Shown piece after piece: positions 3,437 through 13,402 of a stretch of 14,002 nucleotides of DNA. This DNA comes from a virus (lineage: Duplodnaviria > Heunggongvirae > Uroviricota > Caudoviricetes), in the IMG/VR virus record IMGVR_UViG_2695420617_000005, positions 1-14,002 of that record. One strand, written 5' to 3'. The position numbers and the translations under genes are program-made. The notes under the pieces were generated by a model that worked only from the letters and a program-made list of their open reading frames with translations, did not search any database and had not been told where the DNA came from. Within the stretch, counting starts at the first letter, position 1. Every line of letters begins with the position of its first letter.

Positions 3437-3704
3437 GTTACAGGCGCGCATAGAGATTCTTGAAAAAGAGAATGCGAGTCTAAAAGGAATGCTGGCACGG
3501 GCGGAAAGGGAATTATCAGGTAAATTATTGCCAGAAGAACTGCCACCAGCAGATATACCAGATCGAGTGTCCCAGTGGATGAAGTCTTTTGGTTTACCGT
3601 GGGAGGCTTTTTGGTGCTACGAGCATCGCAGATGGTGTGATGAACTTGATAGCAGTTTTCCCTACTTTGCGGAAGGGAACACTTGCCCTGAGTGTAGGAG
3701 GTAG
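3420..3704 (+). CDS. Hypothetical protein, 94 aa: N-terminal coiled-coil plus C-terminal zinc-finger-like motif
   Basis: ATG 3420 with GAGG 6 nt upstream, overlapping the 3' end of the previous gene. C-terminal CYEHRRWC...CPEC (C-x6-C-x17-C-x2-C). Confidence 0.5.
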   Translation: MPTKAELQARIEILEKENASLKGMLARAERELSGKLLPEELPPADIPDRVSQWMKSFGLPWEAFWCYEHRRWCDELDSSFPYFAEGNTCPECRR

Positions 3705-3708
3705 CGCG

Positions 3709-3969
3709 ATGTTTCGTCCTCGTCCAATACCGCCGAAAATAACTAATGGCTATCAGCCGAATACTCCAGAAATACAAGGGAGCGAGGGGCTTAAACCACC
3801 ACCAGCACCACGTATTCCGCCTGTAGCAAGGAGCGTATCATTACGACGAGAGTTAATATTAGCCTTGTCGCCCGTTCTGGCTGCCCGCCAGGATTGGGTA
3901 AGTAATGATGACCTGGCAGAAAAAATCACATCGCTGGTGGATAAAATTCTGCATAAAGCTGATCTCTGA
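3709..3969 (+). CDS. Hypothetical proline-rich protein, 86 aa
   Basis: AGGAGG at 3695-3700, 8 nt from ATG 3709. Pro-rich N-terminal half (RPRPIPPK...KPPPAPRIPP). Confidence 0.4.
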   Translation: MFRPRPIPPKITNGYQPNTPEIQGSEGLKPPPAPRIPPVARSVSLRRELILALSPVLAARQDWVSNDDLAEKITSLVDKILHKADL

Positions 3970-3979
3970 TCACCATGCT

Positions 3980-4013
3980 AAAATCCCCTCAATTCACAGA
4001 GGGGATTTTTGTC
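3980..4013 (+). terminator. Rho-independent terminator (11-bp stem, 8-nt loop, U-tract)
   Basis: aaaatcccctc (3980-3990) pairs with gaggggatttt (3999-4009), followed by TTTTTGT. Closes the upstream plus-strand gene string. Confidence 0.6.
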
Positions 4014-4014
4014 T

Positions 4015-4281
4015 ATGTTGTATAGAGTTTTATGGAAAAGCGTTATTGTCGGCGCGATACTGGCTATATCTGGGTGTGCAATGGTGCAATACAACGACGG
4101 TGAAAAGGTAAGCATACAGTCAGATGGTTGGTATGGCCTGGATAGCCTGCAAAAAACCGCAGATAAAGCCTGTCAGCAATATGGGAAGTCTAAAGCTGTA
4201 TATCAGCATAGCGCGAACGCTAATCCCCATCTCGCTCCTGGGTCGGGTGTTCAGAATACCATCTGGAAATGTGAGCTTTAA
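4015..4281 (+). CDS. Putative lipoprotein, 88 aa (signal peptide with lipobox ISGC)
   Basis: N-terminus MLYRVLWKSVIVGAILAISGC fits a signal peptidase II lipobox. Starts 2 nt after the terminator U-tract, with SD-like GAGGGG inside the terminator stem. Confidence 0.6.
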   Translation: MLYRVLWKSVIVGAILAISGCAMVQYNDGEKVSIQSDGWYGLDSLQKTADKACQQYGKSKAVYQHSANANPHLAPGSGVQNTIWKCEL

Positions 4282-4291
4282 ACGTGAGCAA

Positions 4292-4305
4292 CTGCAATAT
4301 TGCAG
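4292..4305. promoter_or_regulatory. Perfect 14-bp palindrome CTGCAATATTGCAG in the gap before the Toprim-like gene; candidate operator
   Basis: Exact dyad symmetry in the 48-bp intergenic gap. Not followed by a U-tract, so more likely a protein-binding site than a terminator. Confidence 0.35.
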
Positions 4306-4329
4306 CTAAAAGCCAGGAAGAACGGAATT

Positions 4330-4854
4330 ATGACAAAATTTGGAAAGCTGGAAGCTCATTTGCTAACTCGTAACTACCGCCATGATATACACCCATATAG
4401 ACAGTGGATCGATGAAAGTGAAGGAGTAGTTACATTCCCTCTATACAGGTTTGATGGGATGTTGGCTGGGTATCAGACATATAGACCAGGTGCTCCTAAG
4501 CAGCATAGCAATCCGAAGATGGCCCGGTATTTCACGCGATCACATGGCAGACAGTTACTTTGGGGAACCTATCTTCCTTTAAAAGATGGCCCAATATGGA
4601 TCACTGAGTCTATTTTTAAGAGCGCAGCTGTACACAACGCGGGCGGCAATTCGTGGGCGCTGTTAGGTTCGACTTTCTCCGCAGGATTACGCCGTCAACT
4701 TGCGATGCTGCCGTATGACTTTCGTGTAATAGGTGACAATGATGCGGCTGGTGAATTACTTGTGAAGTCTTTCGGAAAAGGTTTTGTGGCCCCGGATCTT
4801 GACGAGCTACAACCACATGAAGTGTCTCATTTGATTTTTAGCCATAGCCAATAA
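4330..4854 (+). CDS. Hypothetical protein with a Toprim-like motif pair, 174 aa
   Basis: AGGAAG 9 nt before ATG 4330. Conserved-Glu context WITESIF followed about 50 aa later by VIGDNDAAGE, the E ... DxD arrangement of DnaG-type Toprim domains. Called by eye, not by HMM. Confidence 0.55.
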   Translation: MTKFGKLEAHLLTRNYRHDIHPYRQWIDESEGVVTFPLYRFDGMLAGYQTYRPGAPKQHSNPKMARYFTRSHGRQLLWGTYLPLKDGPIWITESIFKSAAVHNAGGNSWALLGSTFSAGLRRQLAMLPYDFRVIGDNDAAGELLVKSFGKGFVAPDLDELQPHEVSHLIFSHSQ

Positions 4855-4870
4855 GCCTCCCTCCTCCATC

Positions 4871-4917
4871 AAGGCCACAATTTGTGACCTTAAACAATTT
4901 GTTTTCTGCTTTTTCTT
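4871..4917 (+). terminator. Possible weak terminator: imperfect 21-bp palindrome plus T-rich tract
   Basis: AAGGcCACAAtTTGTGaCCTT (4871-4891) then tttgttttctgctttttctt. Sits in the convergent intergenic region; could alternatively be a protein-binding dyad. Confidence 0.3.
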
Positions 4918-4980
4918 ATTTGAGGAAATAACGTTGTTGACAGCTAATAGGCTCGTTGTTGTTATACATGCCTGTATAGA

Positions 4981-5337
4981 TTATGACCGTAAATTATTAG
5001 CGGATTTTAAGCCATATTCACCGTTGTAGAAATTACTCATGTTCCATTCATTAGGAAGTTCTTTTCTGTCCAATGTATAGTGGCGCACGATATAACGATC
5101 TTCATCTTCTTCGATGGACAGGCGGACATAGCCAATGTGAATCACCGATACGGGCGGTGTTCGTATTGCATAGATGTCGCGGAGATATACCGGCAGCTCG
5201 ACAAATGCATCAGGTGCATCTGTGATGCTCGTTTTTTCACAGTATTCATATAACGCATCGTTGATATCGTTAAGAGATTCATGATCGTATATTTCCAGGT
5301 AATTACCGCGATCGCGATGGTACTCGATTTTAGCCAT
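4981..5337 (-). CDS. Hypothetical protein, 118 aa; distal gene of a two-gene minus-strand operon
   Basis: ATG directly abuts the upstream gene stop (TGAATG on the minus strand), with AGGGGA as RBS. Visibly AT-richer than its neighbours, with an acidic patch SIEEDEDRY. Confidence 0.6.
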   Translation of the reverse strand: MAKIEYHRDRGNYLEIYDHESLNDINDALYEYCEKTSITDAPDAFVELPVYLRDIYAIRTPPVSVIHIGYVRLSIEEDEDRYIVRHYTLDRKELPNEWNMSNFYNGEYGLKSANNLRS

Positions 5338-5922
5338 TCAAAATCCCCTGTTATCGTTTTGCATTTCTCTAATCCGGTTCAGAACTACTTCGTGCTGGAC
5401 TTGGATAGCGGCTTTTTCGTTTTCAAGCCGGGCAATAGACATCTCTAATTCTTTGCTGTACCAGGCGAGCTGGGCCAGGTTCATCCGGTTGTGGTCGAGA
5501 GTTGGAGACACTTCGACGCGATCCCTTTCTTCCTGCTTTAATGAGAAGAGATTCATCTCATCCCTTGAGGAAAATTCAGCAACAATTTCTTGTTGATGAT
5601 CCGGTCGCTGCGGCATCCTCGCCAGTATAAATGGCGGTTCTTTTGAAAACATGAATGTCGGTTCAGACCGTGTTTTTACCCAGCTTGCCTGCTGTCTTTC
5701 GGCAAGTTCACAGGCTTCATCATAGTTATCTGCCAAACAAAGCACGGATGGACGGTCCCACGCCCCACCATTCAGACAATAAACTACAATTTTCCCGTCA
5801 GGTTGTGTAACCCCATATGGATGGTCCCACCAGGCGTCCAGCTGAGCTTTAGAGCGTTTCTCGTTAGGAGTGCAGTCAAAATTTTTGGGCAATACAGGAT
5901 CGAGAGGAATGCGATTAGGCAT
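5338..5922 (-). CDS. Hypothetical protein, 194 aa; Cys-containing N-terminal domain and C-terminal predicted coiled-coil
   Basis: AAGGA RBS upstream of the minus-strand ATG at 5922. C-terminal heptad-like region LAQLAWYSKELEMSIARLENEKAAIQVQHEVVLNRIREMQ. Divergent from humD. Confidence 0.65.
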   Translation of the reverse strand: MPNRIPLDPVLPKNFDCTPNEKRSKAQLDAWWDHPYGVTQPDGKIVVYCLNGGAWDRPSVLCLADNYDEACELAERQQASWVKTRSEPTFMFSKEPPFILARMPQRPDHQQEIVAEFSSRDEMNLFSLKQEERDRVEVSPTLDHNRMNLAQLAWYSKELEMSIARLENEKAAIQVQHEVVLNRIREMQNDNRGF

Positions 5923-6058
5923 AGCTAATTCCTTATTAACTGATTGGCAACGAGGTTACGCTGATCCCGCGGTGATGAATAGTAGCAAAGCGCACAAAAA
6001 TCATCAGCGGTGGTTGATGTACATAACGCGTTTGCACCAAAGGTGCTTCTTTAATGTA

Positions 6059-6078
6059 TACTGTACGGATAAACAGTA
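6059..6078. promoter_or_regulatory. LexA (SOS) box TACTGTACGGATAAACAGTA about 20 bp upstream of humD
   Basis: Fits the CTGT-N8-ACAG core with TA flanks. A possible -10 TATACT (6057-6062) overlaps it; -35 assignment is uncertain. Confidence 0.7.
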
Positions 6079-6096
6079 TTTTTGAGGTAAAACGCT

Positions 6097-6486
6097 ATGG
6101 GTTTCCCTTCTCCTGCGGCGGATTATGTTGAAAGCCGAATTTCTCTTGATCAGCAGATAATTAGACATCCATCAGCAACCTACTTCATGCGGGCAGCTGA
6201 TAGCCATCACCGTGAGGGAATATTGCAGGGTGCTTTGCTGGTGGTTGATTCTTCGCTTACTCCAGTTGATGGTTCGCTGCTTGTGTGCGCTATGGAGGGT
6301 GAATATCGCATAAAGAGATACAGGAAGTATCCGCGCCAGCACCTGGAGGATTTAAGCACCGGGAAGAAAGAGGCGTTACCAGTAGATGACGATGGTTACA
6401 CGGGTAGTAATGCTGTTTTTGGTGTGATCACTCATGTCATCAATGATGCCCGGAGTGGGGAGTTTGATGATTGTCCGGTCATTTAA
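6097..6486 (+). CDS. humD: HumD, UmuD'-like translesion-synthesis accessory protein (129 aa)
   Basis: Begins MGFPSPAADYVE, i.e. at the position equivalent to the UmuD'-generating cleavage site (UmuD ...C/GFPSPAADYVE...). HPSATYF and Ser/Lys contexts conserved. GAGG RBS. Confidence 0.9.
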   Translation: MGFPSPAADYVESRISLDQQIIRHPSATYFMRAADSHHREGILQGALLVVDSSLTPVDGSLLVCAMEGEYRIKRYRKYPRQHLEDLSTGKKEALPVDDDGYTGSNAVFGVITHVINDARSGEFDDCPVI

Positions 6487-6558
6487 GCTGCAAAGTGCTG
6501 GTGCTTTATGCCTGTGAAGTTTATAATTGTGTACACATAACGAGTACACGAGGTGTTT

Positions 6559-6780
6559 ATGCAATCCATTAACTTCCGTACCGCGCGCGGCAACCTTTCT
6601 GAAGTGCTCAACAATGTTGAAGCCGGGGAAGAGGTTGAAATCACCCGCAGAGGCCGTGAGCCAGCAGTAATTGTCAGCAAGGCTACTTTCGAAGCCTACA
6701 AAAAAGCGGCGCTGGATGCTGAATTTGCATCCCTGTTTGACACCCTGGACTCCACCAACAAGGAACTGGTTAACCGATAA
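6559..6780 (+). CDS. phd: Phd antitoxin (73 aa)
   Basis: [49 protein letters not shown]... matches P1 Phd as recalled. TAATG overlap with doc. Confidence 0.95.
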
Positions 6781-13331: not shown

Positions 13332-13402
13332 CTTAAGGGTTATTGAACATGATCAATTTACCTGTAAATCCATACAGTTCAATACCTTATCAGGTCAAAT
13401 AG

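Follow-up and report, generated by a model that had tools for sequence, protein, structure and literature searches.

The closest described relatives of this locus are in P1 and P7, whose GenBank records already catalogue both of its genes under names and without characterisation. P1 carries lxr, annotated as a 'LexA regulated function' (AAQ14072), and P7 annotates both ORFs, as Upf94.2 (AAQ07574) and Upf93.6 (AAQ07573), each of 'unknown protein function'. The lxr gene of P1 was scored as non-essential in a genome-wide CRISPRi screen (PMC10695390), the interval between pap/hot and lxr is a variable region of P1-like elements (RD-5 or region 8; PMC6906374, PMC9603915), and a LexA site overlapping the coi promoter of P1 has been described (PMC4713147). 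Our literature search turned up no work on the function of either gene, and no lxr expression data.

We analysed a stretch of viral DNA of 14,002 nucleotides (hereafter the window), in which homologues of these two genes lie next to humD. The features that bear on the comparison are as follows.

4981–5337, minus strand: upf93.6 homologue, an ORF of 118 aa with an ATG start; phrog_5797
5338–5922, minus strand: lxr homologue, an ORF of 194 aa with an ATG start; P1 Lxr / P7 Upf94.2; phrog_6164
5344–5349, minus strand: Shine-Dalgarno-like AGGGGA for the 118-aa gene, read from the sequence, 6 nt before the ATG
5923–6096, no strand: divergent control region between lxr and humD, 174 bp; aligned with P1 and two divergent elements
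5930–5934, minus strand: Shine-Dalgarno-like AAGGA for lxr, read from the sequence, 7 nt before the ATG
5979–6007, minus strand: best sigma-70-like candidate in the lxr direction, CTGATG-17-TACTAT; score of 7.8 in a weight-matrix scan
6059–6078, no strand: LexA box TACTGTACGGATAAACAGTA, a perfect box, which the P1 and P7 records list as a LexA site
6097–6486, plus strand: humD (UmuD'-like S24 peptidase); Pfam PF00717 and phrog_811; annotated in P1 and P7

The identity of the locus is clear from the comparison. The window is 94–98% identical to SJ46, P7 and P1 over its aligned parts, with 98.7% identity to P7 and SJ46 over 4850–6100, and positions 3700–4980 are 100% identical to the E. coli plasmid p28Eco12 (NZ_CP038506.1, IncY, 92 kb). 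The 194-aa protein shares 94% of its amino acids with P1 Lxr over 189 residues and matches phrog_6164 along its whole length (E=1.3e-135, positions 1–194 of 194), as expected of a full-length member of the Lxr family, and its gene has the same position and orientation with respect to humD and the LexA box as P1 lxr and P7 upf94.2; both traits of the family at this locus, divergence from humD and a LexA box in the spacer, are present. The 118-aa protein is encoded immediately after the lxr homologue, as is Upf93.6 in P7, to whose coding sequence it is 99% identical by tblastn, and it too is homologous over its full length to a phrog (phrog_5797, E=3.8e-77). The locus is thus the lxr–upf93.6 accessory module of P1-like phage-plasmids of the P7/SJ46/p28Eco12 type. 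An earlier description of this DNA, made from the sequence alone and here called the preliminary description, had recognised neither protein, wrongly, since the genes are P1 lxr (P7 upf94.2) and P7 upf93.6. Clear homology to characterised P1 genes, which that description had named as evidence against its own reading, was found in name only, because lxr and upf93.6 are named but uncharacterised.

P1 itself differs from the window past this point. By megablast it is matched from the lxr gene onward only, and by a more sensitive blastn its homology begins at ~5355, within lxr and close to its 3' end. P1 is without four extra Lxr codons (DNRGF) and without the entire 118-aa gene, and there a convergent hot gene follows lxr; in the window and in P7 the four additional C-terminal codons bear the ribosome-binding site of the next gene. 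Downstream of upf93.6 the window in turn departs from P7, with a convergent Toprim-domain gene in the place of IS903. The differences between P1 and the window after lxr (the 118-aa gene and a remnant of hot) fit the published variable region (PMC6906374, PMC9603915). Among the plasmids of PLSDB, lxr DNA was found in 214 (184 of them at a coverage of at least 80%), and a query spanning the 118-aa gene was matched in 156 at any coverage and in 90 at 80% or more.

Several further observations concern the neighbours downstream of the pair. On the plus strand, at ~4293–4322, is the remnant of P1 hot (a theta-subunit homologue), which reads NIAAKSQEER, has no start codon and lies just upstream of the Toprim gene; related plasmids have an intact hot gene in its place. 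The Toprim-domain or primase-like ORF (4300–4854, plus strand; RefSeq start at ~4330) converges on the 118-aa gene, aligns with positions 139–333 of the 435 of phrog_849 and appears to be a piece of a larger primase; P1 lacks it, and P7 has its IS903 in the corresponding interval. Finally, an ORF of 90 aa (4009–4281, plus strand) has a lipoprotein-like N-terminus (…GAILAISGC…), and the RefSeq entry for the identical plasmid does not annotate it.

The layout given in the preliminary description was borne out by the ORF listing and the sequence: a 194-aa and a 118-aa gene abut on the minus strand at a TGAATG junction, and the pair diverges from humD across a shared spacer that holds the LexA box. 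Because the minus strand reads GATTTTGAATGGCTAA, the ATG of the 118-aa gene (5337–5335) directly abuts the TGA stop of lxr (5340–5338) with no gap, and the AGGGGA that precedes it is within the final lxr codons, that is, within the four codons missing from P1 Lxr. Both ATG starts are backed by family alignments, in which the N-termini are conserved from residue 1. The abutting stop and start, together with the Shine-Dalgarno sequence in the lxr tail, show an arrangement in which the 118-aa gene is predicted to be translationally coupled to lxr, and both genes are real and probably co-transcribed. A terminator scan found no minus-strand terminator for the unit, and an Rfam scan of 4700–6600 found no non-coding RNA.

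The preliminary description had also called the distal gene visibly AT-richer than its surroundings and had taken this as a sign of separate acquisition. The first of these statements is true in a weak sense (GC content of 41.7% in the 118-aa gene vs. 47.5% in lxr and a window average of 47.1%, sd 3.7), and an equal AT-richness is seen in ~11% of windows of this size. The second holds on other grounds: P1 has no 118-aa gene, and homology to P1 breaks off at ~5355. A separate history for this gene is better supported by the comparative data than by base composition.

We then considered how the pair might be controlled. Upstream of the lxr ATG, the LexA box begins at a distance of 137 nt; its other end is 19 nt short of the ATG of humD. 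Its CTGT-N8-ACAG core occurs twice in the window vs. 0.15 times expected by chance. The second exact match, CTGTAAATCCATACAG at 13362–13377, lies upstream of the c1/coi region. The best promoter candidate in the humD direction (TTGCAC-19-TATACT) has its -10 element at 6057–6062, in overlap with the LexA box. For lxr, the simple weight-matrix scan for sigma-70 promoters yielded no convincing candidate: the best one scores at background level (7.8 vs. a mean of 6.9, sd 1.9, for the best score per 250 nt) and lies ~50 nt downstream of the LexA box with no overlap, and the sole candidate in this direction that does overlap the box scores under the background mean. Among the divergent P1-like elements, L017 has a perfect LexA box, TACTGTATACATATACAGTA, at 4293–4312, between its lxr homologue and an unrelated divergent gene of 84 aa that replaces humD; that the box has been kept there weakly favours a link to lxr, though it adjoins the start of the divergent gene. 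The box is absent in two other such elements (L018 and L072). Upstream of Lxr-N homologues (homologues of the N-terminal domain of Lxr, see below) outside the P1 lineage, neither CTGT-N8-ACAG (gamma- and betaproteobacterial) nor GTTC-N7-GTTC (alphaproteobacterial) was found, and therefore SOS control is not a trait of the family. Within the P1 lineage, the position of the box makes it plausible that lxr–upf93.6 would be under SOS (LexA) control.

Lxr is a soluble and acidic protein (~22.6 kDa, pI 5.2) that consists of an N-terminal globular domain (~aa 1–125, hereafter Lxr-N), a linker and a long C-terminal helix (aa 149–192). Its AlphaFold2 model is confident (mean pLDDT of 86.8) and predicts a beta-beta-beta-alpha-beta core with a further beta-beta-alpha unit, then a flexible linker and one helix of 44 residues (149–192), in which the d positions, read from the sequence, are L, L, L, I, V and M, in the heptad pattern of a leucine zipper. 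We infer that this helix dimerises Lxr. The zipper is confined to a minority of long forms (~190 aa), mostly P1-like, although long forms occur in Klebsiella too (in K. grimontii and, at 192 aa, on a plasmid of K. pneumoniae). Most Lxr-N proteins stand alone at 130–145 aa, in Klebsiella, Pseudomonas, Burkholderia, Bradyrhizobium, Mesorhizobium, Xanthomonas and others. Four motifs of Lxr-N (IPLDP.LP..F..TPN, WWD.P, CLNGG.DR and RPD) are invariant in 41 sequences at 47–91% identity, and when 1.84 billion cluster representatives were searched with a profile, 473 relatives came out at E≤1e-3, many of them lengthened by a helical module of ~60 aa at the N-terminus or by other stretches without a known domain. 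Together with the presence of the domain in 896 plasmids (see below), this conservation indicates that Lxr is a real and selected protein.

Among the more distant relatives, many (P0140, P0146, P0148, P0155, P0174 and P0179) have at the N-terminus a helical module of ~55 aa (…L..K..AK……H…ALE..A…G…W..L) that weakly resembles the start of PF20066 (Glyoxalase_8), and one of them has a PaaA2 'stability determinant' motif above the Pfam threshold; the longer relatives showed no other domain fusion. Two candidate functional sites in Lxr were considered and rejected: a catalytic Cys/His/Asp site in Lxr-N, since distant relatives have other residues in place of Cys49 and Asn51, and a beta-clamp-binding motif at EMNLFSL, which lacks conservation and falls within a predicted structural helix.

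The remote-homology and structure search that the preliminary description had proposed was run, and it matched neither protein to a toxin-antitoxin, defence or solved-structure family. Lxr had no significant match in Pfam, NCBIfam, PADLOC or PDB sequences, and neither did the 118-aa protein; PDB sequence searches with single sequences and profiles of both proteins gave nothing below E=0.07, and in PHROGs both proteins and their relatives matched phrogs of unknown function only, the rest being sub-threshold noise. Neither protein has a hydrophobic stretch suggestive of a membrane span. HicB-like (TTHA0281-type) small alpha/beta domains scored at noise level, equal to generic coiled-coil matches, and the locus differs from HicB-like systems in that it has neither sequence similarity to them nor a HicA partner nor a C-terminal domain for DNA binding.

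The family extends far beyond P1. By tblastn, Lxr-N is present in 896 PLSDB plasmids (472 from Klebsiella, 193 from Escherichia, 106 from Citrobacter and others from elsewhere), 564 of which are typed as conjugative, and in alpha-, beta- and gammaproteobacteria its carriers are conjugative plasmids, ICE-like elements and phage-plasmids. Lxr is thus not an oddity of P1; rather, judged by sequence conservation, P1 Lxr is one member of a large and strongly conserved domain family for which there is no Pfam model. Of 60 loci examined, most have Lxr-N as a solitary gene, and across these loci no conserved neighbour was found except the 118-aa gene in the P1-like elements L017, L018 and L072. Its surroundings vary in kind: in 23 of 51 genomic loci of a genome scan, mostly of alpha- and betaproteobacteria, a TraG/VirD4-like gene lies within 3 kb; one Lxr-N gene is terminal in a Trb transfer operon; in Klebsiella IncFIB/IncHI1B plasmids its neighbourhood includes an HNH gene and a restriction-modification system; in a Citrobacter MOBH plasmid it is ~4 kb from umuDC; and in SSU5-like phage-plasmids it is flanked by replication and recombination genes and precedes a HEPN/Toprim gene.

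Two contexts were recorded more closely. In the Klebsiella SSU5-like loci L007–L011 (6001–7763), an Lxr-N gene of 131 aa is directly upstream of a HEPN_Toprim_N / HEPN_RiboL-PSP gene, in a block with RecA-like, gp32-like, 5'-3' exonuclease and DnaE-like genes. In P. aeruginosa plasmids of ~47–64 kb (L012–L016, 5790–7040), a gene of 66 or 67 aa, an Lxr-N gene of 135 aa and a serine resolvase gene form a conserved trio in which the last two overlap by 4 nt, and which adjoins a Fic/VbhA pair and RepA.

The 118-aa protein is unrelated to Lxr. It is acidic (family pI range of 4.6–5.4), has a mass of 14 kDa and is predicted to have an alpha/beta fold, at an AlphaFold2 pLDDT of just 65. Homologues are 52–58% identical in other P1-like elements and in MOBP plasmids and 38% identical in IncN plasmids; the extended family was found in mobile elements of Enterobacterales only, and all of its members are annotated as hypothetical. 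The pair is kept in the divergent P1-like elements L017, L018 and L072, at 65–70% identity for Lxr and 54–58% for the 118-aa protein. Elsewhere the gene occurs without lxr: in MOBP/MPF_I conjugative Salmonella plasmids it follows unrelated genes of 81 and 320 aa beside ccdAB, and in IncN plasmids (~35 kb) it is amid ssb, a TrfB-like gene, a gene for a small membrane protein and ccgAII. Judged by gene names, this ssb–ccgAII block presumably resembles a leading region. A single ENA protein of 166 aa from a metagenome assembly (P0132) looks as if the Lxr C-terminus had been fused to the 118-aa protein by a frameshift or read-through, and is probably an artefact of assembly or gene calling.

These distributions bear directly on what the two genes might do, and several readings can be weighed against them. 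It is decidedly unlikely, in our judgement, that Lxr is a dimeric DNA-binding regulator of humD and/or of the downstream cargo gene, with Upf93.6 as a regulated passenger. Such a role would suit the location of lxr at a divergent control region, and many Lxr homologues are labelled 'DNA-binding protein' in RefSeq/PGAP, but this name has no traceable source, NCBIfam models were unmatched, and the label fits poorly because Lxr and the Lxr-N family (median pI 5.0) are acidic. The modelled C-terminal zipper would be apt for dimerisation, but it is missing from most family members. DNA-binding candidates are found near relatives of the 118-aa gene, namely a TrfB-related DNA-binding protein encoded two genes upstream in IncN plasmids (with a hydrophobic ORF of 89 aa between) and the adjoining 320-aa protein of MOBP plasmids, whose N-terminus looks winged-helix-like by eye; however, no helix-turn-helix, ribbon-helix-helix or other DNA-binding model was matched.

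The preliminary description favoured a toxin/immunity or sensor/effector pair. A type II toxin-antitoxin or toxin/immunity pair, which would stabilise the plasmid or abort infection after SOS induction, would agree with two small abutting genes that are translationally coupled, with their retention in the divergent P1-like elements, with phd-doc adjoining the locus and with the PaaA2 motif of the one distant Lxr-N relative. The components of a type II system form an obligate pair, however, and here lxr stands alone in P1, the 118-aa family is found without lxr in IncN and MOBP plasmids, and Lxr-N is solitary in most of the loci examined. Nor did either product have a significant toxin-antitoxin match in Pfam, NCBIfam or PADLOC, defence models being likewise unmatched; both proteins are acidic, and neither has a recognisable DNA-binding antitoxin domain. 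The comparison of presence and absence across P1-like elements that had been suggested as a check of the pair speaks against it, as P1-type elements carry lxr without the 118-aa gene. Because each gene occurs without the other, neither a toxin/immunity nor a sensor/effector pair is supported, and we regard the former as very improbable. Least probable of all is an SOS-induced sensor/effector module with which the prophage would counter other phages by abortive infection or superinfection exclusion: the LexA box within the control region, the place of the genes in the variable accessory region (RD-5 or region 8; PMC6906374, PMC9603915) and the Lxr-N gene that precedes a HEPN/Toprim gene in SSU5-like phage-plasmids would speak for it, but PADLOC was unmatched, neither protein has an enzymatic or effector domain, the components are separable, and homologues outside the P1 lineage have no LexA box upstream.

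The reading that we prefer, tentatively and at a rough probability of 0.4, is that lxr and upf93.6 are two independent and dispensable accessory genes of the plasmid and phage-plasmid pool, whose small acidic products may bind host proteins. The two genes would probably be read as one mRNA from the divergent region between humD and lxr, and Lxr and Upf93.6 would act as independent, non-essential accessory factors and not as a mutually dependent pair. Each would most likely bind host proteins of DNA damage, replication or defence during establishment or stress. This idea is based on their acidity, their size and their context on mobile elements, and many small acidic proteins of mobile elements bind host proteins. 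The tight coupling kept in three divergent P1-like elements could reflect a functional partnership specific to that lineage. We consider unlikely as a whole a more detailed version of this reading, in which Lxr-N would be a new family of mobile-element inhibitors that bind a conserved host protein of DNA damage, replication or defence, the P1 lineage would have made Lxr dimeric (by the zipper) and SOS-inducible (by its place beside humD), and Upf93.6 would be a second, independent anti-defence protein of the leading-region type that hitch-hikes on the same transcript.

The locus itself is ordinary, and P1 can plate without lxr. What is modestly new is how widely Lxr-N, for which Pfam has no model, is distributed, that the zipper is specific to a lineage, and that Upf93.6 has relatives in IncN and MOBP plasmids; the wider value lies in the presence of the Lxr-N family on clinically important conjugative plasmids, ICE-like elements and phage-plasmids. 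If either protein were an inhibitor of a host factor, P1 would offer convenient genetics for a function relevant to many resistance plasmids.

Taken as two independent accessory genes, lxr and upf93.6 can be compared with the genes of plasmid leading regions and anti-defence islands. They are unlike leading-region genes in that neither has homology to known anti-restriction, anti-CRISPR or SOS-inhibitor families: Pfam gave no match of either protein to anti-defence families (ArdA, ArdB/KlcA, PsiB, Acr and others), and no anti-defence structure was among the PDB matches listed, in which the full-length Lxr query was dominated by coiled-coil matches. They also differ in their carriers, as P1-like elements are not conjugative, unlike the plasmids whose leading regions have been described, and the placement in a leading region is inferred from gene names. 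The likenesses are several: both proteins are small and acidic, reside on mobile elements and are encoded beside a UmuD homologue; the 38%-identical IncN relative of Upf93.6 is amid ssb/korA-like genes and ccgAII; and the Lxr-N relative of the MOBH plasmid, at ~4 kb from umuDC, recalls islands that have umuDC at their borders. In plasmid leading regions, anti-defence islands frequently have homologues of umuDC at their boundaries (Samuel & Burstein 2024, PMC11541004), and these islands thus provide a precedent for the position of the pair next to humD.
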